Source: Hyphomicrobiales bacterium (GTDB lineage: Bacteria; Pseudomonadota; Alphaproteobacteria; Rhizobiales; Methyloligellaceae). Taken from it: DNA of 24,000 nucleotides. Positions 2,534 through 20,909 of this stretch are shown piece after piece; position 1 is the first letter of the stretch; the number at the start of each line of letters is the position of its first letter. Below the pieces are notes generated by a model. It ran no database searches. It was not told the DNA's origin and was given only the letters and a program-made list of their open reading frames with translations. Where the stretch lies: positions 81,728-105,727 of the forward strand of contig JAJFHN010000072.1 of NCBI GenBank assembly GCA_021775595.1, written 5' to 3'. The translations under genes were made by a program, and so were the position numbers.

Positions 2534-2755
2534 CTATTTGATGAAGCCTTCGTATTTCTTCTTGAATCGGCTTACGCGGCCGCCCCGGTCAACGAGATGC
2601 TGACCGCCACCGGTCCATGCCGGATGGGTTTTGGGATCGATGTCCAGCGTGAGCACATCGCCCTCAGATCCATAGGTCGAGTAGGTCTCAAACTCGGTCC
2701 CGTCGGTCATCACGACCTTGATCTTATGATAATCGGGGTGAATTTCTTTCTTCAT
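2534..2755 (-). CDS. rpmE: 50S ribosomal protein L31
   Basis: [50 protein letters not shown]...RFKKKYEGF is a canonical L31 of 73 aa with no Cys residues. The track ORF 2534..3130 is an upstream read-through of the same frame. The true start is ATG at 2755. Confidence 0.93.
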
Positions 2756-2940
2756 CGATGCCGCCAAAGGTTGATTTGACCCTCCTATATCTAAACACCA
2801 ACTACAACACAAGGCGTGCATATCGGAGTGAAGCTCATTAGACCTTGCTGCCTGCCGCCATTTTGGGGCGTCGGGCTTGCGCGGACTGCTCCCACTGGGC
2901 ATTCTCGGCTCGATCAAAACCGTTACCCAGAGTATCTCGA

Positions 2941-4776
2941 TTGACCTCAGCATCGCCACGCGACACGGAAGCTTCTGCCGATGCGACCGTCGATGATGTA
3001 TCCGAAGCGTCCGATAAGCGCGCCGCCCGCACGCTGCGTCCTCTGACGACATTTTGGCCGTATCTTGCGCGCCATCGCGCAATGATTGTCGTTGCATTGA
3101 TCGCACTTCTCGCCGCCGCTGCCGCCACACTGGCGCTGCCGATGGGTGTTCGGCGCATGATCGATATGGGTTTTTCGGGCGAGAACGCGGGCGTAATCGA
3201 TCAGTATTTTGCGATGATGGTTATGATCGGTCTGGTCTTAGCCCTGGCCAGCGCGGCGCGTTTTTATTGTGTGATGTGGTTGGGTGAGCGGGTCGTTGCA
3301 GACGTGCGCTCAGATATATTTGACCACATCACCAGATTGAGCCCGGCTTTCTATGAGACCACCCGTTCAGGCGAGGTGATGTCTCGGTTGACGGCCGACA
3401 CCACGCAAATAAAGTCGGCCTTTGGCGCGACGGCCTCGATGGCGCTGCGCAATTTCGTCCTCCTGATTGGCGCGATCGTCATGATGGTTATCACCAGCCT
3501 CAAGCTCTCCACATTGGTGCTCGTCGCCATTCCGCTCATCGTCGCGCCGCTCGTTGGTTACGGACGATTGGTGCGTAGGCTTTCACGCAGCGCGCAAGAT
3601 ACGCTGGCTGAAGCGTCGGCCTATGCCAGTGAGAACCTCTCGGCTGTGCAGACCCTGCAGGCATTTACCCATGAAGCAGCGGCCACCCGGCGCTTCGCCA
3701 GCGCGGTCGAGCTTTCATTCGACGCGGCAAATGCGCGCTCCAAGGCGCGCTCGGGCCTGACGGCGCTCGCAATTTTTTTGGTGTTCGGCAGCGTTGTCGG
3801 CGTCTTGTGGTATGGCGCGCAGGAGGTGATTGCTGGAACGATCACTGGCGGGCGCCTCGGGCAGTTCGTGCTCTACGCCGCGCTGGCGGCAAGCGCCATG
3901 GGTGTGTTGAGCGAAATATGGGGCGAAATGCAACAGGCCGCCGGCGCGGCCGAGCGTCTTGCCGAACTGCTTCACGCCAAATCAGCGATCGTCTCGCCGG
4001 CGCGTCCGGCGGACTTTCCCGAGCATGCTGAGGGCCGCATCGAGATGGACGCGGTCACATTCAGCTATCCTTCGAGGCCCGAGATAAAGGCTCTTGATGG
4101 CGTCTCCTTCACCGTCGAACCCGGCGAGCGCGTTGCTATTGTCGGACCGTCGGGCGCTGGAAAGAGCACAGTCTTTTCGCTGTTGTTGCGGTTTTACGAT
4201 CCCCAGTCGGGCTCGGTGCGGATCGATGGCGTGCCCGTGAACAAGGCCGATCTGAGGGCTGTACGCAGATCCATCGCCACGGTGCCCCAGGAGACGGCGC
4301 TGTTTGCAGACACCGTCGCCGAGAACATCCGCTACGGCGCACCGGAAGCAAGCGACAAGCAAGTTCACGCCGCAGCCAAGGCGGCATTGGCGAGCGAGTT
4401 TATCGAAGCTTTGCCCAACGGTTTCGATACCCAGCTGGGTGAGCGCGGCGTTATGCTGTCAGGAGGCCAACGGCAGCGCATCGCCATCGCTCGCGCGATT
4501 CTGAGAGATGCGCCAATACTTCTGCTCGATGAGGCAACCAGCGCCCTCGATGCCGAGAGCGAAAAGCTCGTTCAATTGGCGCTTGATCACGTCATGGAAG
4601 GCCGAACAACGCTGGTTATCGCTCACCGCCTGGCAACCGTGTTGCAGGCAGATCGCATACTGGTCTTGAGCGGCGGACGCATAGTGGAGGAAGGCAACCA
4701 CAAGGCGTTGGTCAAAAACAAAGGTCACTATGCACGGTTGGCCAAACTGCAATTTGACGTTCGGGCAGCCGAGTGA
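2941..4776 (+). CDS. ABCB-type exporter (fused transmembrane domain plus ATPase; MsbA/ATM1-like)
   Basis: The product has a six-helix TMD followed by Walker [10 protein letters not shown], the ABC signature LSGGQRQR, Walker [13 protein letters not shown] and the H-loop AHRL. The open frame extends to TTG 2845, but residues before 2941 are Cys/Trp/Arg-rich and do not look protein-like. TTG 2941 gives 611 aa, typical for the family. The start remains uncertain (2845, 2863 or 2941). Confidence 0.9.
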
Positions 4777-4819: not shown

Positions 4820-5239
4820 TTATTTCTTGACCAAAGCGTCACGAATTTCCTCCAGCAGAACTTCTGACCTCGGCGGAACCGCCGGCGCCTCTTCCTTCTC
4901 GTGCTCCAACCGCTGCCGGGCTTCGTTCATCGCCTTGATCACCACAAAGAGTGCAAAGGCGACAATCAAGAAGCTGATCACCGAATTGACGAACAAGCCC
5001 CAATTGAGCGTCACCGCACCCGCTTCCTTTGCCGCCTCCAACGTCGGGCTGTCGGGTCCCTTGAGCGTGATAAAGAAGTTGCTGAAATCCACACCGCCGA
5101 GCGCTAGCCCGATCGGCGGCATCAGCATGTCATCGACAAGTGATTTAACAATGGTGCCGAAAGCGCCGCCGATGACGATGCCGACAGCCATGTCGACAAC
5201 ATTGCCGCGCATGGCGAAGTCGCGAAATTCCTTGAACAT
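4820..5239 (-). CDS. mscL: Large-conductance mechanosensitive channel
   Basis: [44 protein letters not shown] is the hallmark MscL N-terminus and TM1, in a 139-aa product. A strong SD (GAGGAGGG) lies upstream of the ATG. Confidence 0.95.
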
Positions 5240-5333
5240 AGTCCCTCCTCGGTTTGTCGATGATGGGTAAAACGACGCCCGTTTAACACGAGGGGGAAGC
5301 AGGAAAAATCTTTCGATGGCAAACTTATTGAAA

Positions 5334-6362
5334 TCAGCGCTCGGTCAGCTTGAGTTCTATGCGGCGGTTTCGACGCAGCGCGGCCGCACTGTCGGTCTTA
5401 TCCAAAGGTTGAAACTCGCCAAATCCGGCAGCCACCAAGCGTTTGGGCGAGACGCCGCGCGCAATCAGATATTGCACGACCGACAGCGCCCGTGCGCTGG
5501 AGAGCTCCCAATTTGAAGGAAACTGCTCGGTGGCAATCGGGTTTATGTCGGTGTGGCCGTCGATCCTGAGAACCCAATTGATTTCACCCGGGATGGTTCC
5601 CTCGAGTTGGCCGAGCGCGGCCGCGAGCTTATCCAATTGAGCGCGGCCGATCTCATTGACCTCAGCCGAACCTGAAGCAAAAAGCACCTCAGCTTGGAAG
5701 ACAAAGCGGTCTCCCACGATACGGATGTCTTGGCGCTGTCCGAGCACTTCACGCAGGCGACCGAAAAACTCCGACCTGAAGCGCGCGAGTTCCTGCACCC
5801 GCTTTGCCAGCGCGACGTTCAACCGCTTTCCCAAGTCAGCGATGCGTGTTTGGCTCTCCTGATCGCGCTTCTCGGAGGCTTCAAGCGCCTGTTCCAAAGC
5901 GCCGAGCTGGCGCCGCAGGGCCGCGATTTGTTGGTTTAGAAGTTCGACACGAGCCAATGCATCGGCGCTGATCGACTTCTGTTCGTCGAGATTCTCGCCA
6001 AACGACGTCGCCCGGGCGCGGTCTTTTTCAGACTTGTCGTTTTGTGTTTCCAGTAAGCCGCGCAACCGCGTGTTCTCAGCTTCGCTCGCAGCAAGCGTGG
6101 CCGACAATGCGCTCAAACCGTCGTCCACCGATTTCTTGCCCGATTGCTCGAGTGCCAGAAGTTCGGTCAGTTGGGCGATTTGCACATTGAGCCGCCGCAG
6201 CACATTGTCCTTGCCGCTGGCTTCCTGTGTGATGAAATATTGCGCTAGCATAAAGAGCGAGAGCAGAAATGTGACGACAAGCAGCAACGTGGCCATGGCA
6301 TCGACGAAGCCAGGCCAATAATCGGCGGCGAACCCGCGCCGGCGTGAGCGGCTCAACGCCAT
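5334..6362 (-). CDS. MotB-like stator B subunit: N-terminal TM helix with conserved Asp, long coiled coil, C-terminal OmpA-type peptidoglycan-binding domain
   Basis: The 342-aa product has a basic N-terminus followed by [20 protein letters not shown], where Asp21 occupies the MotB/TolR/ExbD position. About 160 residues of heptad-like sequence follow. The C-terminus has the OmpA-like motifs IDGHTD...NWELSSARA...NRRIELKL. Its start lies 2 nt after the stop of the upstream gene (TAAccATG). Confidence 0.85.
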
Positions 6363-6364
6363 GG

Positions 6365-7387
6365 TTATTTTCTCCCGCTCTGGCTGCTGCTGAGAGACTT
6401 GGCGCTGTCGCTGATTTGTTCGATCACCGTGGCCAGTTTTTGGTTCTTATCCGATTGCTCGTCGGCCCATTCGCGAATGATTTTTTGTTCATTGCGCATT
6501 TGGGTTACGAGCTTCTCGATGTTTTTTGCCAGCGCCTTAATGTCCTGCATCGCGTTGTCGTTGGCGCCATTCTTTTCGATCTTCTGGCCGAGATCGGAAA
6601 TGGAACGTTGGACGTCGACCAAAGCGAAGCGAATTTCGGGCTCACTATCGGGTTCGCTCTTGTCTCCGACGCCAATTTCCGTTGCACCGGCCAGCCAGTT
6701 TTCGAGCTCGTTGTAAAAACGGTTTTGCGCTTGGTTGGCTTGCAAATCGAGAAAGCCCAGGATGAGCGATCCGGCGAGACCGAACAGGGACGACGAAAAC
6801 GCCGTTCCCATGCCCGAGAGCGGCGCCTCCAGGCCAGCCTTAAGTTCCTCGAAAACAACGAGGCTGTCTCCGGCATTTGTGTCGAGCGCGGAAATTGTGC
6901 GGCCGACCGAACTGATTGTCTCAAGCAAGCCCCAAAAGGTGCCCAGCAGGCCGAGAAAAATAAGCAGCCCAACTAGGTAGCGCGAGATGTCGCGCGCTTC
7001 ATCCAAGCGCGAGGCAATCGAATCGAGGATCGATCGGGTAGAGTTGGTGGTCAGTGTGAACAGGCCCCGCCTGTCGCGCAGCATGGCCGCCATCGGCGCC
7101 AGCAGCACCGGTGCGCGCTGAGCCTTAAGACCTGGATCCGATACCCGAAAATTGTTCACCCAGCGGATTTCTCGATAGAGACGCAAGACCTGGCGGAAGG
7201 CGAAGATAATTCCGAAAATCAGAGCGCAAACGATCAGACCGTTGAGCCACATATTGGCCAGAAAAGCCCGCCAAATTTGCTCATAAAGAACCGCCGATAA
7301 AAAGGCGAAGAGAATGAGAGCGATCGTCATCCATTCCAGGTTTACCCGCGGATGCGATAGAGTTGGGTGCGGTTGTGATGCAGCCAT
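6365..7387 (-). CDS. MotA/TolQ/ExbB-family proton-channel A subunit with a C-terminal coiled-coil tail
   Basis: The 340-aa product has two N-terminal TM helices. The MotA_ExbB core follows (LLGTFWGLLETISSVG ... GMGTAFSSSLFGLAGSLILGFLDLQ). It ends in a hydrophilic E/K/Q-rich tail of about 125 aa (KALAKNIEKLVTQMRNEQKIIREWADEQ...). It is translationally coupled to the MotB-like gene. Confidence 0.85.
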   Translation of the reverse strand: MAASQPHPTLSHPRVNLEWMTIALILFAFLSAVLYEQIWRAFLANMWLNGLIVCALIFGIIFAFRQVLRLYREIRWVNNFRVSDPGLKAQRAPVLLAPMAAMLRDRRGLFTLTTNSTRSILDSIASRLDEARDISRYLVGLLIFLGLLGTFWGLLETISSVGRTISALDTNAGDSLVVFEELKAGLEAPLSGMGTAFSSSLFGLAGSLILGFLDLQANQAQNRFYNELENWLAGATEIGVGDKSEPDSEPEIRFALVDVQRSISDLGQKIEKNGANDNAMQDIKALAKNIEKLVTQMRNEQKIIREWADEQSDKNQKLATVIEQISDSAKSLSSSQSGRK

Positions 7388-7525
7388 GAGCGAGGTGAAC
7401 TCCTGCGTCTTTGGGCGCTCGCCCCCGCTGGCGCCTGAAATCTCAGGGTCTTTTTATGCGATCAGTTTGACATGATAACGGCACGAATATTCGATTGTTG
7501 AGACTGTCAAACGGCAGTTTTGCGC

Positions 7526-8311
7526 CTAATTTTTCAGGATTTTCGTCAATTCGCGGCTGACGACCTCATTTCCGGCAATTATATCGCCTGTTGCCAGCCA
7601 CTTCTGTCTGCCATCCGTGTCGGAGACAAAACCGCCAGCTTCGCGCACCATAATTGCACCGGCGGCGATGTCCCACGGGTTCAAGTTGCGCTCCCAAAAA
7701 CCGTCGAATCGACCGGCGGCGACCCACGCCAAGTCGAGCGCGGCGGCGCCACAGCGCCTGATACCTGCGACTTGCGGCATGACATCAGCGCACTCTTTCA
7801 AAAACAGCTCGTGATCCGGCCGGCCCCGATGTGGGATGCCCGTCGCAATCACGCAGTCGCCCATTTCTTGGCGTGCCGCTACGCGGATCCTGCGGTCGTT
7901 GAGAAACGCGCCACCTCCTCGTTCGGCCGTGAACAGCTCGCCCGATGCGGGATTGTAAATCAGGCCAGCGACAATCTCGCCATCGCGCTCAAGGGCCATC
8001 GAGATGGCAAAAAGCGGGATCCCATGCAAAAAATTTGTGGTGCCGTCGAGCGGATCGATGATCCAGCGATGCGATTTATCGGCACCTTCAACCACGCCGC
8101 GCTCTTCAAACAAAAAACAATAGCCCGGACGCGTTCGGGCCAGCTCTTGATGAAGAATTTCTTCCGAGCGCTGATCCGCGGCCGTGACGAAATTGGCTGG
8201 TCCTTTTTGCGATACCTGAAGCTGCTCAACCTCGCCAAAATCACGCGCCAGCGCGCGACCGGCCTTTCGGGCGGCTGCAGTCATCACATTCATTAGAGCA
8301 GATGCGGGCAC
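7526..8311 (-). CDS. suhB: Inositol monophosphatase family protein (SuhB-like)
   Basis: The 261-aa product has LMNVMTAAARKAGRALARDFGEVEQLQVSQKGPANFVTAADQ, the IMPase motifs WIIDPLDGTTNF and WDIAAG. Confidence 0.92.
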   Translation of the reverse strand: MPASALMNVMTAAARKAGRALARDFGEVEQLQVSQKGPANFVTAADQRSEEILHQELARTRPGYCFLFEERGVVEGADKSHRWIIDPLDGTTNFLHGIPLFAISMALERDGEIVAGLIYNPASGELFTAERGGGAFLNDRRIRVAARQEMGDCVIATGIPHRGRPDHELFLKECADVMPQVAGIRRCGAAALDLAWVAAGRFDGFWERNLNPWDIAAGAIMVREAGGFVSDTDGRQKWLATGDIIAGNEVVSRELTKILKN

Positions 8312-8350: not shown

Positions 8351-8914
8351 TTAATCCGCGCGGCGCACGTAAGTGAGCTCGTTGGTGTCGACCACGATGT
8401 TTTCACCGGTTCCGACAAATGGTGGAACCATGACACGGACGCCATTTTCGAGCACAGCCGGTTTATACGACGAGGCCGCAGTCTGGCCCTTAACGACAGG
8501 CTCCGACTCGACAACTTTAAGCGTTACCTGATCTGGCAGTGACACGCCAATTGGCGTCGACTCGTGGCTCTCCACCATCACCTGCATTCCGTCCTGCAGG
8601 AACGTCGCGCGCTCGCCCAAAAGGTCTTTGGCAATTTGAATTTGCTCGTACGTATCCAGATCCATGAAAACCAGATTGTCGCCTTCGGCGAACAGGAATT
8701 GATGTTCCTTTTGTTCGAGACGAACACGCTCGACTGTTTCCGATGATCTGAATCGCTCGTTGAGCTTCGTGCCATCCAAGGCATTCTTGAGTTCAACCTG
8801 CGCATAGGCCGGGCCTTTGCCCGGCTTCACGTGCTGGGTTTTAACCGCGATCCATAGCGAGCCCTTGTGCTGCAACACGTTGCCCTGGCGAATTTCGTTG
8901 CCGTTTATTTTCAT
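8351..8914 (-). CDS. efp: Translation elongation factor P
   Basis: The 187-aa product has the beta3-beta4 loop [15 protein letters not shown] and the C-terminal [17 protein letters not shown] typical of EF-P. Confidence 0.95.
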
Positions 8915-9106: not shown

Positions 9107-10027
9107 CTACCGGCTGTTATTGCTGCGCCACTTGGCAGCAGCGGCGGTTGCCTCTTTGCGTTCGGCATCGGTCAAGCCGCCCATCAGCAGATCGAGGTTA
9201 AAGTCGCTGACGCCGGCCTCGCGCGCCAGCAGATGCCATTTGATCGCCTCGGTGGCATTAATTTTGACACCCAGGCCGCGGGCATAGAGCATTGCCAGTC
9301 TGTTTTGGGCGACCGGGTTGCCCTTATGGGCCGAGGATCGAAGATAGCCCGCCGCGCCAGACTCGTCTTTCGCCACGCCGCGCCCATTGAGCAGCATGAT
9401 CGCGTATTCGAGCTCGGCGTTCGGCAGTCCCGACTTGGCAGCACGGCCCGTCCAATGGGCCGCTTTGGCCTCGTCCTTCGCGACACCGCGCCCGAGTGCA
9501 TACAGGTTGCCGAGGTCATATTGAGCGTATGCGTGGCCGTCGTTTGCAGCCTTCTGCAGCAGTTCGGCCGCGCGTTTGAGATCTCGTTGACGGGCCTGAC
9601 CTTCAATATAGATCAGAGCCAAATTATAATGTGCATTGACGTGCCCCGCCTTAACCGCCTGATCAAATAGATCAGCAGCACGTTTCTTGTCCTTTTCGAC
9701 CCCACGGCCTTCGGCATAGAGAATCGCCAACGCAAATTGCGCCTCCATGTCACCGAGGCGAGCGCCGTTTTCGTAGGCCGCCACAGCCTTGGTGAAGTCC
9801 TGGGCGACGCCCAATCCTTCCGCGTGAATGCGTCCCATTAATGTGTGGGCGCTGGCCTCGCCGCGTGCAGCTGCCTTCTCGGCTTCGCTCAGAGCGGTGA
9901 GAAACTCGCCGCGCTGAAATGCGTCGAAGGCTGGATCCTTGCTGGTTGCAGACATAGACGTGATGGGCGCGCTCAAGAGAATAACGCCCGCCACGGTTGC
10001 AGCAGATTTTGCAAGAAACGAAGTCAT
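9107..10027 (-). CDS. Secreted Sel1-repeat (TPR-like) protein
   Basis: The 306-aa product has an N-terminal signal peptide (AATVAGVILLSAPITSMSA). It carries multiple Sel1 units of the form A.....G.GV..D...A..W..KAA..G. Its ATG overlaps the stop of the upstream gene (ATGA at 10024-10027). Confidence 0.85.
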   Translation of the reverse strand: MTSFLAKSAATVAGVILLSAPITSMSATSKDPAFDAFQRGEFLTALSEAEKAAARGEASAHTLMGRIHAEGLGVAQDFTKAVAAYENGARLGDMEAQFALAILYAEGRGVEKDKKRAADLFDQAVKAGHVNAHYNLALIYIEGQARQRDLKRAAELLQKAANDGHAYAQYDLGNLYALGRGVAKDEAKAAHWTGRAAKSGLPNAELEYAIMLLNGRGVAKDESGAAGYLRSSAHKGNPVAQNRLAMLYARGLGVKINATEAIKWHLLAREAGVSDFNLDLLMGGLTDAERKEATAAAAKWRSNNSR

Positions 10028-13530: not shown

Positions 13531-13896
13531 ATGGGGCAAGTAACGATTACCCTGAACGGCAGAACCTACAAATTGGAATGCGATGATGGCGAAGAAAGCC
13601 ATCTGCAAATGTTGTCAGGTCAAATGGTCAAGCATGTTGAAAGCCTGACCGGCAAATTTGGCCAGGCGGGAGATGATCGCTTGCTTTTGATGGCGGGATT
13701 GCTTGTGGCCGACGAACTGTGGGAAACGCGCAAGCAGATTGACGAGCTCAATGCCAAATTGGCTCAAATTCACAATGATCACGCGACGGCGGATGAGCTG
13801 GTTGAATCGGCGCAGGAGGAGCTCGCGGGCATGATCGACGCTGCCGCAGAGCGGATTCAAGCCTTGAGCGCCCGCCTCGTGCAGTCGGGTTCTTGA
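13531..13896 (+). CDS. zapA: Cell division protein ZapA
   Basis: The 121-aa product has MGQVTITLNGRTYKLECDDGEESHLQMLSGQMVKHVESL...DDRLLLMAGLLVADEL, the ZapA N-terminal domain, followed by a coiled coil. Confidence 0.9.
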   Translation: MGQVTITLNGRTYKLECDDGEESHLQMLSGQMVKHVESLTGKFGQAGDDRLLLMAGLLVADELWETRKQIDELNAKLAQIHNDHATADELVESAQEELAGMIDAAAERIQALSARLVQSGS

Positions 13897-13924
13897 GGCT
13901 GGACTCTTAATGTTTGTGATCTAG

Positions 13925-14105
13925 AGTGCCGACGACAGAGCTGCAAGGTTCGTTAGAAACAAATTATCCCCAGGGCCTATTCGATTCTCTAGGGAGCTGA
14001 CCCTGGCTGGGACCGTGGTCCCAATCACTCGGCGCCCACCTACACTAGTAGGGACCCGGAGGGATCGACCGTTTCGACGGCCAAGCGGCTCTGTTATTGT
14101 CTTCA
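13925..14105 (+). ncRNA. ssrS: 6S RNA (candidate)
   Basis: This non-coding gap lies between zapA and the 5-formyl-THF cyclo-ligase gene, the classic conserved ssrS locus. The ends can pair into an interrupted closing helix: ACAGAGC at 13935-13941 with GCTCTGT at 14089-14095, CTGC with GCGG, and GAAAC with GTTTC. Internally, CCCCAGGG can pair with CCCTGG(c)TGGG, and GGGACC-gt-GGTCCC is a short palindrome. Boundaries are approximate (about +/-10 nt). Confidence 0.65.
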
Positions 14106-14173
14106 AGCTGCGCAAAACATCCGTGGAGCTGCGCTGGACGATGACATTGCTCCGCTCTCCGGCTTGACGCTCA

Positions 14174-14764
14174 ATGTCAGGTCCATCCGATTCCTCAATT
14201 GGCAAACCGGCGCTTCGGCAGGAGATGACCGAGCGGCGCGATCGGCTGGCAGGTGAGAGGCGCGTGAGCGCGGCTCGTTCGGTTGCAGAGGCCGGCTTAG
14301 AAATGATCGGACAGCTTGGCGCGCGCACCGTAGCGGGGTACTACCCGATTGCAAGTGAGTTAGACGTGCTGCCTCTGTTGGGCCTTTTGCACGGGGTGGG
14401 AACTGACCTGGCGCTGCCCGTGACTCCGACCGTGAGGGGGCCGCTTAAATTTCGCCAATGGAGTCCCTCCGATCAATTGATGCAGGGACGCTTTGGCATT
14501 ATGGAGCCGCTTGAAGAGCGCTTGGAAGTAGCGCCCGATGCGATACTGGTGCCTATGCTCGCTTTCAACCGGGCAGGCCATCGACTGGGCTATGGCGGAG
14601 GATACTATGACATGACGCTGCGATCACTTCGCGCGCGCGCAAAGGTCACAGCCATTGGCGTGGCGTTCGACGAGCAGGAAACCGATGCCCTCAACGATGA
14701 AGCCCATGACGAGGCTCTCGATTGGCTGCTGACACCCTCCAAGGCGCAACGGGTCGGGGAATAG
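14174..14764 (+). CDS. ygfA: 5-formyltetrahydrofolate cyclo-ligase
   Basis: The 196-aa product has KPALRQEMTERRDRL at the N-terminus, then YYPIASELDVLPLL, and the family motif GHRLGYGGGYYD near the C-terminus. Confidence 0.9.
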   Translation: MSGPSDSSIGKPALRQEMTERRDRLAGERRVSAARSVAEAGLEMIGQLGARTVAGYYPIASELDVLPLLGLLHGVGTDLALPVTPTVRGPLKFRQWSPSDQLMQGRFGIMEPLEERLEVAPDAILVPMLAFNRAGHRLGYGGGYYDMTLRSLRARAKVTAIGVAFDEQETDALNDEAHDEALDWLLTPSKAQRVGE

Positions 14765-18148: not shown

Positions 18149-19191
18149 GCACGCGTGCGGTTCAGCCGATAGAAATCGAAGGCGACAATCAGGAACTGTC
18201 ACTGCGGCCACAGACCCTGAGCGAGTTTATTGGTCAGCGGCGCTCGTGCGACAATCTGAAAGTCTTTATCGACGCAGCGCGCGCGCGCGGCGAGGCGCTC
18301 GACCATACCCTGTTCGTTGGCCCGCCCGGCCTCGGGAAAACGACCCTTGCTCAGATTGTTGCCCGCGAACTCGGGGTCAATTTTCGCGCCACATCGGGTC
18401 CTGTGATCGCCAAGGCCGGCGACCTTGCCGCGCTGCTGACGAATCTGGACGAAAGGGATGTCTTATTTATCGATGAGATTCATCGCTTGAACCCTGCGGT
18501 GGAAGAAATCCTCTATCCCGCCCTGGAGGACTATCAGCTCGATTTGATCATTGGCGAGGGCCCGGCAGCCCGTTCGGTCCGCATCGACATTGCCCACTTC
18601 ACCCTGGTTGGCGCCACCACCAGGTCTGGGCTTTTGACGACGCCATTACGCGATCGCTTTGGAATTCCGATACGGCTTGATTTCTATGGAGAGCCAGAGC
18701 TGGAGGAGATCGTGAAGCGGGGCGCCCGGGTGCTTGGAATTGCCATGAGTTCGGGTGGCGCCACTGAAATCGCGCGGCGCGCCAGAGGCACGCCGAGAAT
18801 TGCCGGGCGCCTTTTGCGCCGGGTGAGGGATTTTGCAACCCACGAGGGCGCCGATCAAATCGACAAAGAAATCGCCGACCGCGCCCTGGTTCAGCTTGAA
18901 GTCGATGTCCGCGGGCTCGATGCCCTCGATCATCGATACCTGCAATGCATTGCCGTCACATTCGGCGGTGGACCAGTCGGCGTCGAAACGCTTTCGGCGA
19001 CGCTCAATGAGCCGCGCGATGCGATAGAGGAAATCATCGAGCCATACTTGCTGCAGCAGGGGCTCGTCAGCCGAACGCCGCGCGGCCGCCTTCTAACAGG
19101 CGAGGCGTACAGGCACTTGGGACTGGACGTGCCCAAGCAGCCTAACAACCAAATCGCCTTGTTCGGTAACGAAGAGAGCGAGCGTGGCTGA
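18145..19191 (+). CDS. ruvB: Holliday junction DNA helicase RuvB
   Basis: The 348-aa product has [12 protein letters not shown], Walker [12 protein letters not shown], Walker [10 protein letters not shown], and sensor and arginine-finger regions. Its start overlaps the ruvA stop. Confidence 0.96.
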
Positions 19192-19657
19192 CGCCAAGGG
19201 CCCATGGCCCGACATCGCGGGCCGCGTCGATGACGGCCGCCACGTTGTGCCCGTTCGAGTCTATCACGAAGACACCGATTTCTCGGGGCTCGTGTATCAC
19301 GCGAGCTACATCCGATTCTTCGAACGCGGCAGGTCGGACTTCGTCCGCCTGCTGGGCATCGATCACGAAGATCTGATCGCTCCCAAGGACGGAGCCGAGC
19401 CAGCTGCTTTCGTCGTACGCCGCATTGAGATCGATTATCTGAAACCGGCCGCCATTGGCGATGTGTTGGAGGTGGTGAGCGAATGCGAGGAATTAGGCGG
19501 CGCAACGTTGACGATGAAGCAGGAGATCAGACGCGACGATCAAACGATTGTGCGCGCCCGCGTCAAGATCGTGCTTATTACAAAATCGGGAAAACCGCTG
19601 CGAATGGGTGCGCTGATACGGGGCGCATTTGAACGCTTCCTTAACCAAGACAGCTGA
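19184..19657 (+). CDS. ybgC: Tol-Pal-associated acyl-CoA thioesterase (4HBT fold)
   Basis: [35 protein letters not shown] is the YbgC/4HBT catalytic-Asp motif. The GTG start overlaps the end of ruvB by 8 nt. The gene lies immediately upstream of tolQ. Confidence 0.88.
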
Positions 19658-19748
19658 CCCTGCAAACAATCCAAATCGTGGAGCATTCACGCTTTGCCGC
19701 TCGGCAGAGTGATCGCATTTTGTCTGGTTAGGGATCAAAAAAGCCATC

Positions 19749-20462
19749 ATGACACCGACAGATATCGAGGTACTGGCACCAGTGAACACGGGGGCGGGCT
19801 TGTCGCTCGTATCGCTTTTCTTCAACGCCCATCTCGTCGTTCAGCTTGTCATTATAGGCTTGGCGCTGGCGTCCGTTTGGAGCTGGGCCATCATTATGGA
19901 AAAGCTGGTCTTGATCGCGAACACGCGCCGCCAATCGGACAGTTTTGAGAAGACATTCTGGTCGGGCCAATCTCTCCAAGAACTCTATCAATCCCTTTCA
20001 CAACGTCCCGACACCGCAATGGCAGGCATATTTGTCGCCGCGATGCGCGAATGGAAACGAAGCGTGGAAGACAGCGCCAAACCGTTGGCGGGCGTTCAAA
20101 TGCGAATTCAGAAAGTGCTGTTCGTCGCCATCAATCGCGAGGTCGGGCAGCTTGAGCGACGCCTGATGTTTCTGGCCACCGTCGGTTCGATCGCGCCTTT
20201 CGTCGGCTTGTTCGGAACGGTTTGGGGCATCATGTCGAGTTTTCAGGCAATTGCAGCCAGCCAAAATACAAATTTGGCGGTGGTCGCGCCAGGCATCGCC
20301 GAGGCCCTATTTGCCACAGCGCTCGGTCTGCTCGCCGCCATCCCGGCAGTGATCTTCTACAACAAATTCACCCATGACGTGTCCCATCACGCCCAGCGCC
20401 TGGAGGGCTTTGCCGACGAATTCTCGGCAATCCTGTCACGTCAGATCGACGCGAAGGGCTAA
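19749..20462 (+). CDS. tolQ: Tol-Pal system protein TolQ
   Basis: The 237-aa product has the MotA/TolQ/ExbB core FVGLFGTVWGIMSSFQAIA...GIAEALFATALGLLAAIPAVIFYNKF and sits in the ybgC-tolQRAB context. Confidence 0.94.
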   Translation: MTPTDIEVLAPVNTGAGLSLVSLFFNAHLVVQLVIIGLALASVWSWAIIMEKLVLIANTRRQSDSFEKTFWSGQSLQELYQSLSQRPDTAMAGIFVAAMREWKRSVEDSAKPLAGVQMRIQKVLFVAINREVGQLERRLMFLATVGSIAPFVGLFGTVWGIMSSFQAIAASQNTNLAVVAPGIAEALFATALGLLAAIPAVIFYNKFTHDVSHHAQRLEGFADEFSAILSRQIDAKG

Positions 20463-20465
20463 CGC

Positions 20466-20909
20466 ATGGCCCCCAACATGAATTTTGGCGAGACCGCCAC
20501 GCGCCGGCGGCGATCGCGCTACCGCCCAATGAGCGAGATCAACGTTACGCCATTCGTTGATGTCATGTTGGTGTTGCTGATCATATTCATGGTCACCGCT
20601 CCGTTGCTAACGGTCGGCGTGCCCGTCGATCTGCCCAAAACCCAGGCCAAGCAGCTCAACGCCCAAAAAGAGCCCCTGGTCGTGTCGGTAAATCGCGATG
20701 GGAAAATCTTTATCCAGGAGCACGGTGTCGAAGCCGATAAGCTTGCACCCAAATTGGTAGCCATCACCAATAATGGCTTCGATCGCCGCATCTTCGTGCG
20801 CGGCGACAAGACAGTGAATTTTGGCGCAATCATGAAAGTGATGGGCGCCATTAACGTGGCCGGCTTCAGGCACATTGCGCTGGTGAGCGAGCAGGAAACC
20901 TCACCGTAG
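20466..20909 (+). CDS. tolR: Tol-Pal system protein TolR (ExbD/TolR family)
   Basis: MSEINVTPFVDVMLVLLIIFMVTAPL carries the conserved TM Asp, followed by the periplasmic ExbD domain. The gene starts 3 nt after the tolQ stop. Confidence 0.93.
   Translation: MAPNMNFGETATRRRRSRYRPMSEINVTPFVDVMLVLLIIFMVTAPLLTVGVPVDLPKTQAKQLNAQKEPLVVSVNRDGKIFIQEHGVEADKLAPKLVAITNNGFDRRIFVRGDKTVNFGAIMKVMGAINVAGFRHIALVSEQETSP

Follow-up and report, generated by a model that had tools for sequence, protein, structure and literature searches.

A conserved MotA/ExbB/ZorA-type gene pair in the core genome of Alphaproteobacteria as a candidate housekeeping envelope motor

Two tightly coupled genes in a 24,000-nucleotide (nt) stretch of DNA from a Hyphomicrobiales bacterium of the Methyloligellaceae (contig JAJFHN010000072.1, positions 81,728 to 105,727; hereafter the window) encode an uncharacterised member of the 5:2 motor superfamily, which is real and conserved and lies outside the flagellar, Tol/Ton and Zorya families. 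These genes are designated here A and B; both lie on the minus strand, as do all of the features described below for their products. With a probability that we put at about 0.6, the pair encodes a housekeeping ion-driven motor that is closest in design to ZorAB, is anchored to the cell wall, has the tail of its A subunit as the likely output and serves a role in the cell envelope. The gene pairing, the domain architecture, the conservation of key residues, the fold class, and the phyletic and syntenic pattern are established by the analyses reported here, which followed up a first-pass annotation made from the letters of the window.

Ion-driven 5:2 motors power flagella, Ton/Tol transport, gliding and type IX secretion, one type I secretion system, and Zorya, and this list of functions, published in 2025, contains no system like the A/B pair (PMC12204202). 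Many other motor homologues have been grouped under the label 'unknown function' (PMC12505986). Searches of the open-access literature under ZorAB-like, PRK09039 or stator-like terms found neither a published function for the pair nor an assigned role for its orthologues, which agrees with the initial proposal of an envelope machine whose output had yet to be named.

Gene pair and subunit architecture

The A open reading frame (ORF) spans positions 6365-7387 and encodes 340 amino acids (aa), and the B ORF spans positions 5334-6362 and encodes 342 aa. Only 2 nt separate the stop codon of A from the ATG of B (junction AAATAAccATGGCG), and this arrangement (TAAccATG), like the lengths of both products, had been correctly read in the first-pass annotation. 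Every motif that it quoted was also located in the translations, namely LLGTFWGLLETISSVG and GMGTAFSSSLFGLAGSLILGFL in A, NRRIELKL and FVD21 in B, and FVDVMLVLL in the TolR protein encoded in the window. A and B are real genes and not chance ORFs, since homologue matches reach an E-value (E) of 1e-200, at least 8000 matches were found for each of them, and residue Asp21 of B is invariant in 61 orthologues.

A is a channel-ring protein like MotA, ExbB and ZorA, with four transmembrane (TM) helices and a helical C-terminal tail, and its AlphaFold2 model has a mean predicted local distance difference test (pLDDT) score of 86. Hydropathy and the model place its TM helices at residues 19-37 (TM1; positions 7277-7333; helix 14-33 in the model), 46-66 (TM2; 7190-7252), 136-160 (TM3; 6908-6982) and 192-215 (TM4, GMGTAFSSSLFGLAGS; 6743-6814). 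A cytoplasmic loop of ~70 residues (67-135; 6983-7189) joins TM2 to TM3 and holds invariant W76 and R127 as well as near-invariant E130, R132 and R136 (alignment A1), and a periplasmic loop (161-191; 6815-6907) with conserved F179, L182, G185, L186, P189 and L190 leads from TM3 to TM4. Across 65 homologues, with identities down to 34%, invariant residues concentrate in TM3 (L145-G146-L147 and G149-T150-F151-W152-G153-L154, within an LGLLGTFWGL core) and in TM4 (F197, S200, G203 and L204; S200 codon 6788-6790). Thr150 (codon 6938-6940) was aligned by hhalign with Thr148 of ExbB in the GTxWG motif and with the equivalent residue of GTVWG in TolQ. In profile alignment, TM1 of ExbB lands on TM2 of A and not on its TM1, in a match that is not significant (E 0.9-2.1); TM2 is thus the tentative counterpart of ExbB TM1, and TM1 of A would be an additional helix relative to ExbB, TolQ and ZorA. 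The two extra N-terminal TM helices first attributed to A were one too many: with four TM helices in all, A exceeds ExbB, TolQ and ZorA by one and equals MotA.

The cytoplasmic tail of A (residues 216-340; 6368-6742) conforms to its earlier description as an E/K/Q-rich helical extension of about 125 aa. It contains 10% E, 9% K and 10% Q, and in the AlphaFold2 model is divided into a post-TM4 helix or extension (216-241, with the motif QNRFYNELExWL), a variable linker (242-250) and helices 251-272 and 277-339. A crude scan with a simple a/d-position score flagged no heptad-like stretch in it. The tail is the most variable region of A, with a mean conservation of 34% against 91% for TM3 and TM4 (82 orthologues). 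Its most conserved motif, at residues 292-312 (KLVTQMRNEQKIIREWADEQ; 6452-6514), has the consensus MRxEQxxxRxWxxxQ in the same 82 orthologues and is shared by the orthologue of Sinorhizobium meliloti. Tail length differs with lineage, A homologues ranging from 330 to 614 aa in total. Hyphomicrobiales have the short form, which is ~125 aa long and contains the conserved motif MRxEQxxxRxWxDEQ; a long form of ~170-190 aa carries PAYxxALLEQTA, RxHLRNID and a C-terminal EIRLLARTIA motif; and the longest forms (A of 581-614 aa in total) contain tandem RxHLRxLD helical modules.

B is a MotB/ZorB-like stator protein. Over its full length (residues 1-342) it matches the NCBIfam equivalog NF006545 (PRK09039.1-4, 'peptidoglycan-binding protein') with 494.7 bits against a cut-off of 372, a family whose name has no experimental function behind it. 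As initially annotated, a basic N-terminus precedes a TM helix identified by hydropathy (residues 17-42; 6237-6314), which carries Asp21 (codon 6300-6302), and residues W16, P17, V20, D21, T25, L26 and L27 of this region are invariant. Asp21 is the same in the 61 orthologues (alignments A2 and A3), in S. meliloti, and in a 46%-identical B from the most distant A locus, where A is 34% identical. GHTD, NWELS, R291 and NRRIELKL of the C-terminal domain are likewise invariant in the 61 orthologues, S. meliloti and the 46%-identical B. Poor conservation of either set would have spoken against the first-pass proposal of a wall-anchored motor, and both sets proved to be strictly kept.

That C-terminal domain (residues 216-342; 5337-5717; GHTD 269-272, NWELS 284-288, R291, NRRIELKL 332-339) is of the OmpA/MotB type and corresponds to the peptidoglycan-binding domain that had been predicted in B. 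It was recognised by Pfam PF00691 with 60.4 bits (2.3e-16); by sequence, B matched MotB, MotS and PomB in the PDB at 1e-16; and by Foldseek, the domain reached target-normalised TM-scores of 0.76-0.80 with MotS, the DVU_2228 MotB-like protein, PA0833 and TssL. The Pfam search returned no match of B to MotB_plug (PF13677), and Pfam and NCBIfam searches gave none to PF02472 (ExbD/TolR).

Between the TM helix and this domain lies a periplasmic helical stalk (residues 43-215; 5718-6236) with conserved blocks at both ends and a variable middle (73-134). The blocks read SGKDxxLxRLNxQIxxLTELLxLE (49-72) and VELLNQQxAALRRQ...IADLGxRLNxALAxxVQELxRYRSxFFGxLR (139-204), with strong conservation over 135-207. 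The AlphaFold2 model of B, computed from a shallow input alignment (at least 65% identity), shows a predicted helical stalk in the form of long helices at 17-106 and 114-207 with pLDDT values of ~50-75, and residues 43-215 contain no proline. A heptad-like segment of ~160 residues had been claimed here: the helical stalk stands, and within it the crude a/d-position score flagged only residues 132-169 as strongly heptad-like. A coiled coil may nevertheless extend along the whole stalk. In almost all of the best 120 database matches, B measures 341-344 aa, and the S. meliloti protein (342 aa, 57% identical) aligns with that of the window essentially without insertions or deletions; this near-fixed length across Hyphomicrobiales, whose sequences show hardly any insertions or deletions in the stalk, suggests selection on the length of the stalk. 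B of distant lineages has 368-442 aa, and the one distant B included in an alignment has its additional residues within the stalk. As one unbroken helix, residues 43-207 would span ~24 nm, far more than the ~9 nm quoted for the distance between inner membrane and peptidoglycan in E. coli (PMC11946911), so that the stalk may be hinged at the variable residues 107-113 or oblique.

Relationship to known 5:2 motors

When A was compared with the PDB as a single sequence, only a chance match to talin was obtained, and when the full-length A profile was used, coiled-coil proteins crowded the results and ZorA (8vvn) stood at E 0.054. Since sequence alone fails to place A among solved structures, a fold search and family hidden Markov models (HMMs) were used. 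The model assigns A to the fold class of solved ExbB, TolQ and ZorA, in which long TM helices reach into a compact cytoplasmic domain. ExbB, ZorA (8vvn, 8qyd/h/k/y) and TolQ lead its Foldseek matches in the PDB, with probabilities of 0.97-1.0, and fill the top 40 except for one low-probability PomA; target-normalised TM-scores are at most 0.57 and every E-value is above 1e-3. MotA and PomA structures occupy positions 39-50, with query-normalised TM-scores of 0.16-0.32. The hhalign probabilities were 57% for ExbB, 53% for TolQ and 8% for E. coli MotA, the last alignment covering the TM3-loop region alone, with no significant similarity beyond the TM core. The best folds of A and the alignment of Thr150 with Thr148 of ExbB point to the MotA/TolQ/ExbB-type channel core first claimed for it.

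Among the family HMMs, those of PADLOC matched window A to ZorA1 (5.7e-14) and ZorA3 (9.2e-12). Each of the 65 diverse A homologues matches two ZorA3 models as well as PDLC00597, a model of ZorA1; the other two ZorA3 models are matched by 64 of the 65. The best values are 1e-16 to 1e-12, and the ZorA3 matches span the TM3-loop-TM4 core. Window B matches ZorB3 at 1.7e-20, from just past the TM helix of the model to its end, which gives B an insertion of ~135-150 residues between TM helix and domain relative to the model. These ZorA and ZorB matches, at 1e-10 to 1e-20, are limited to the TM core in A and to the domain in B. For A, NCBIfam yielded only weak matches, to antiphage_ZorA_4 (20.5 bits, cut-off 500) and ZorA_2 (18.2 bits, cut-off 100), and no Pfam-A or NCBIfam model covers A above its cut-off; on Pfam MotA_ExbB (PF01618), 45 of the 65 family members reach E <=0.01, the best being 3.6e-6. 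The HMM searches proposed in the first-pass annotation thus had a mixed outcome, in which the OmpA model matched B clearly, MotA_ExbB matched A below its threshold, and MotB_plug returned nothing. In the vocabulary of a recent survey, the pair combines a non-flagellar 'GIT'-like A with an OmpA-bearing B (PMC12505986), and that combination is described there only for Zorya systems, which were excluded as remote.

With ZorAB (types I-III; E. coli 8QYD, Shewanella 8VVN), the pair has in common that its A and B genes adjoin each other, that no models in the libraries searched gave better HMM matches to the TM core of A, that a compact ExbB-like cytoplasmic domain leads into a C-terminal helical tail whose length varies, and that B combines one Asp-bearing TM helix with an OmpA-type domain, here without a detectable MotB_plug. 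Variation in tail length with repeated helical modules is also common to the A family and ZorA (PMC11946911). The differences are equally clear. A has four TM helices against three in ZorA, and its scores stay well under the curated ZorA thresholds of NCBIfam. Its tail of ~125 aa (as long as ~400 aa in relatives) compares with one of ~500 aa in E. coli ZorA (approximately residues 223-729), and long tails have been reported for all Zorya types (PMC11946911). The ~165-residue helical stalk is found in B only, the solved E. coli ZorB having its domain directly on the TM helix (PMC11946911). ZorAB further comes with effector genes and a defence-island distribution, whereas the A/B pair has no effectors and lies in core-genome synteny. 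The ZorA-like architecture with a much shorter tail that had been noted from the letters is upheld by the ZorA matches of 65 of 65 members and by the 125-aa tail.

ExbBD and TolQR share with the pair the best folds of A, the aligned Thr of GTxWG, and a compact cytoplasmic domain formed from extended TM helices. They differ in that B is here of the OmpA type and not of the ExbD/TolR type, and in the additional TM helix and the tail of A. As claimed at the outset, the pair is not Tol: the window has a separate tolQR, with tolQ starting at 19749 (PF01618, 125 bits) and tolR at 20466 (PF02472, 99.6 bits), in a canonical ybgC-tolQ-tolR cluster at 19184-20909, ~12.4 kb from A and B. Tol-Pal membership was accordingly rejected on the presence of this cluster and the missing ExbD match in B. 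The ORFs that follow tolR are taken to be tolA and tolB from the ORF list.

MotAB and PomAB resemble the pair in the four TM helices of A, the Asp-bearing TM helix and MotB-type domain of B, and the tight coupling of the genes. Flagellar stators have a large torque-generating cytoplasmic domain between TM2 and TM3 that is unrecognisable in A, where the loop has ~70 residues, and the stalk of B is much longer than the MotB linker; the OmpA-like peptidoglycan-binding domain of stators is present in B. A was ranked against MotA, TolQ, ExbB and ZorA by HMM and hhalign scores, with ~80 residues alignable, and this ranking does not put it within the MotA/PomA group, a placement that would have been telling in a genome with no other stator. 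S. meliloti has its own motA: in CP090106.1, a canonical motA (43.9% identical to E. coli MotA) lies at 712,900-713,739 and the orthologous pair at 3,084,024-3,086,161 on the same replicon, 2.37 Mb apart. This record, of 3.72 Mb and labelled plasmid pSymB of S. meliloti strain Ak57, would seem to be a mislabelled chromosome, given its ribosomal protein genes, purEK, suhB and motA, and Shinella and Sinorhizobium sp. records of 3.5-4.6 Mb are seemingly in the same situation.

Other non-flagellar motors of the 5:2 type, as the pair is proposed to be, are GldL/GldM (PorL/PorM), the motor of gliding and type IX secretion, and SiiA/SiiB of the SPI-4 type I secretion system of Salmonella. In GldLM, the B-like subunit is a dimer with a long periplasmic extension, and GldM, which has no OmpA domain, reaches the outer membrane. 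The B-like subunit of SiiAB has a MotB-like peptidoglycan-binding domain, and SiiAB is part of a secretion-system locus. To our knowledge, neither GldLM nor SiiAB has a tailed A subunit or the gene context of the pair.

Distribution and genomic context

The A family comprises at least 8000 clusters at 90% identity, and at 50% identity at least 553 clusters with E <=1e-30 and at least 1645 with E <=1e-10. Its members include Methyloligella, Methyloceanibacter, Rhodomicrobium, Hyphomicrobium, Sinorhizobium, Shinella, Sneathiella and a metagenome-assembled genome of Rhodospirillaceae. Gene order was examined in 80 genome loci, mostly of Hyphomicrobiales. B directly follows A in 77 of them, the other three ending at a contig edge, and the gap between the two genes is mostly -4 to +6 nt. 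A is preceded by suhB in 71 of the 80 loci, and a convergent ABC exporter gene follows the pair in 50. Hyphomicrobiales, S. meliloti and relatives with 34-47% identity all preserve the efp-suhB-A-B order together with the rpmE/ABC/DUF1465 neighbourhood; a 34%-identical relative retains rpmE ... ABC-efp-suhB-A-B, and one with a 612-aa A retains efp-suhB-x-A-B. In S. meliloti, the order is thiE, a Sel1 gene, suhB, A (368 aa), B (342 aa), a convergent ABC gene and rpmE.

Neither the 50,697 phage genomes searched, which held no homologue, nor IMG/VR, which gave a single 25-residue match, pointed to phage relatives, and the G+C content of the pair (56.8%) is close to that of the window (57.3%). Together with the synteny across orders, these results support the core-genome context first proposed for the pair, which looks vertically inherited, housekeeping and part of the core genome across Alphaproteobacteria.

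In the window, suhB (7526-8311) and efp (8351-8914) lie upstream of A on the minus strand, and mscL (4820-5239) is co-oriented 94 nt downstream of B, as had been annotated. The suhB-A intergenic region (7388-7525, minus strand, 138 nt) contains one weak sigma-70-like site (TCAACA-18-TATCAT, 7501-7472), promoter-like sites being about as frequent in the scanned region as expected by chance (2 seen, 1.6 expected), and the 94-nt B-mscL intergenic region (5240-5333, minus strand) a weak terminator-like hairpin at 5292-5278. No flagellar gene (fli, flg, flh) was found in the window or in related loci, no gene resembling the Zorya effectors ZorC, D, E, F or G was found nearby, and no TonB or TolA partner gene is adjacent to the pair. 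The neighbours are suhB, efp, an rgsF-like gene, thiE, mscL, the ABC exporter gene and rpmE, and the same housekeeping set recurs in related loci; the earlier statement that housekeeping genes, and no TonB-like, flagellar or Zorya partner, flank the pair thus holds.

The mscL gene was found after B, before the convergent ABC exporter gene, only in the closest relatives (A 90% and 68% identical), a restriction that indicates a lineage-specific insertion into the conserved gene order. As a functional partner of the pair mscL was rejected, being absent after B in all of the 80 genome loci, and the reserve with which the first-pass annotation had treated this adjacency was justified.

The Sel1-repeat gene at 9107-10027 (minus strand), which encodes 306 aa with four Sel1 repeats, is the orthologue of S. 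meliloti RgsF/SMc03995 (38% identity, E 2e-52). An rgsF orthologue precedes the pair at a distance of two to three genes in 52 of the 80 loci (thiE-rgsF-efp-suhB-A-B), and is gone from the neighbourhood in distant relatives that retain efp-suhB-A-B. In rhizobia, RgsF is essential and acts in growth and septation, and it was recovered together with RgsA and RgsB from a network to which TolQ and TolR also belong (PMC7327166). This linkage points weakly to an envelope or growth-zone role of the pair. From the gene order in strain Ak57 beside SMc03995 (RgsF, 381 aa) and SMc03994 (suhB), SMc03993 and SMc03992 would be the S. meliloti orthologues of A and B, respectively. A DNA fragment bound by the envelope-stress regulator ChvI, F10, maps inside SMc03993 (PMC3687685), a possible sign that ExoS/ChvI regulates the downstream B gene or the whole pair. 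By locus tag, SMc03993 was found in the open-access literature only as this fragment, and SMc03992 not at all.

Proposed mechanism and alternative readings

In the preferred reading, a ring of five A subunits in the inner membrane would enclose the TM helices of two B subunits. Protons from the periplasm would pass by way of Thr150 in TM3 and a path along the TM4 serine of A to Asp21 of B, and through the protonation and deprotonation of this residue the A ring would be driven stepwise around the B dimer. B would be held fixed by its ~165-residue helical stalk, which would carry the MotB-type OmpA domain onto peptidoglycan. The A ring would carry a C-terminal helix bundle, one tail per subunit, into the cytoplasm as the likely output or signalling element, where it would act on a partner encoded away from the pair. 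Most likely, the pair would monitor or maintain the attachment of the inner membrane to the wall and would have no part in motility, Tol function or phage defence. The coupled genes, the invariant Asp of B, the Thr in GTFWG of A, the ExbB/ZorA-like fold and the MotB-type domain fit an A5B2 motor with B2 on peptidoglycan and A5 turning, and it is as a modular helical tail on a rotating ring, shared with ZorA, that the tail of A is taken as the probable output. The 5:2 stoichiometry, the type of ion with the use of protons, and rotation would follow by likeness to solved MotAB, ExbBD, TolQR and ZorAB (PMC11946911).

More tentatively, and at well under even odds, the pair may represent a class-wide, vertically inherited alphaproteobacterial ZorAB-like motor that is a housekeeping sister or ancestor-like relative of the Zorya sensor module. 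The stalk would then be a ruler or strut to peptidoglycan, and the A ring, driven by the proton-motive force, would report or correct the connection of membrane and wall through the tail bundle. Such a motor would represent a new functional class beside motility, Ton, Tol, gliding and type IX secretion, SiiAB, and Zorya.

Several observations weigh against a ZorAB-like housekeeping motor with a cytoplasmic output. Window A matches Pfam MotA_ExbB with 18.4 bits, below the gathering cut-off of 22.9, and the TM-core profile of A retrieved only solved ExbB from the PDB, at E ~1, and no solved ZorA or MotA. The proposed A5B2 assembly is built on predictions of monomers, and the B stalk is modelled with low confidence (pLDDT ~50-75). 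The strong conservation of this stalk could also place the output in the periplasm instead of the cytoplasm. Finally, SMc03993 and SMc03992 are absent from searchable tables of essential genes and from the tables of Rgs and Tol pull-down experiments.

A periplasmic output is at the centre of an alternative that we consider unlikely, though the likeliest of the rivals, in which the pair would be a force transducer in the style of Tol, Ton or GldLM. Rotation or pulling would be transmitted through the B stalk to peptidoglycan, for instance to set the distance between membrane and wall at zones of growth or division, and the tail of A would only regulate or localise the motor. The high conservation of stalk blocks 49-72 and 135-207 and the nearly fixed length of B at 342 aa across Hyphomicrobiales, S. 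meliloti included, are what such a transducer would lead one to expect, and the RgsF orthologue near the pair in 52 of 80 loci, with TolQ and TolR in the Rgs network (PMC7327166), and the ChvI-bound fragment inside SMc03993 (PMC3687685) also favour it. However, the absence of SMc03993 and SMc03992 from the pull-down tables counts here as well, rgsF is separated from the pair by housekeeping genes and missing near it in distant relatives, the OmpA domain is a static anchor in MotB, PomB and ZorB, and the variable, modular tail of A suggests a lineage-specific cytoplasmic function.

We regard as still less probable that the pair works, with no productive rotation, as a static peptidoglycan tether or as a gated ion channel that leaks ions under stress. 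An OmpA anchor on a long stalk is compatible with a structural tether, and mscL adjoins the pair in the small clade of the window; yet mscL is not adjacent in any of the 80 genome loci, and Asp21 and GTFWG/Thr150 are strictly invariant in more than 60 diverse sequences, which is the signature of an ion-coupled mechanism and not of a passive tether.

ZorA and ZorB models give A and B their best HMM matches, and A has a ZorA-like helical cytoplasmic tail, which raises the question of a degenerate or minimal Zorya anti-phage system, a ZorAB whose effectors are encoded elsewhere or lost. This is very improbable in view of the NCBIfam ZorA scores far under their cut-offs, the absence of any ZorC/D/E/F/G-like gene nearby, the vertical-looking inheritance and order-spanning synteny as opposed to patchy defence islands, the native G+C content with no phage or viral copies, and the short tail of A and long stalk of B as compared with the E. 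coli proteins.

An additional flagellar stator, as implied by the name 'flagellar motor protein MotA' given to many A homologues by the Prokaryotic Genome Annotation Pipeline (PGAP) of NCBI and by the name 'chemotaxis protein MotB' given to B by the Joint Genome Institute (JGI), is the least probable alternative, for although A has four TM helices, B has a MotB/MotS-like domain and NCBIfam MotD matches B at 7.6e-33, under its cut-off, A reaches only 8% with E. coli MotA, MotA and PomA stand near the bottom of its fold matches, its TM2-TM3 loop is short with no MotA similarity detected past the TM core, fli, flg and flh genes are missing from the window and related loci, and S. meliloti has a canonical motA elsewhere. 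The MotA and MotB names carried by homologues of A and B would thus appear to be over-annotations, and the flagellar stator label is probably wrong.

Other features of the window

The other content of the window is also core genome and comprises gap, fba, thiE, the Sel1-repeat gene, zapA, 6S RNA, ruvCAB, rpmE and the ABC exporter gene. The 6S RNA (Rfam RF00013, 67.9 bits) lies at 13935-14095 on the plus strand, between zapA (13531-13896) and a 5-formyltetrahydrofolate cyclo-ligase gene (14174-14764); the ORF at 13921-14328 (minus strand), which overlaps it and has no Pfam match, is probably spurious. A second RNA, the alphaproteobacterial small RNA BjrC1505 (Rfam RF02356, 79.7 bits), was located at 1677-1814 on the plus strand, upstream of a DUF1465 gene (1961-2503). 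Two ORF calls, 2534-3130 (minus strand) and 2845-4776 (plus strand), overlap. The first has 198 aa, of which only residues 126-194 form the L31 domain, and rpmE of relatives encodes 73 aa; the second encodes the ABC exporter with 643 aa against 564-608 aa in relatives. The shorter relatives and the confinement of the L31 domain to the end of its ORF place the true starts of rpmE and of the exporter gene inside both ORFs.

Concluding remarks

The A/B pair defines a large, well-delimited family in the conserved core of alphaproteobacterial chromosomes, including that of the genetically tractable S. meliloti. If the reading of a wall-anchored motor with output through a cytoplasmic tail is true, the ZorAB design would not be confined to phage defence, a route to the origin of Zorya would be opened, and a housekeeping function of the cell envelope would be revealed.

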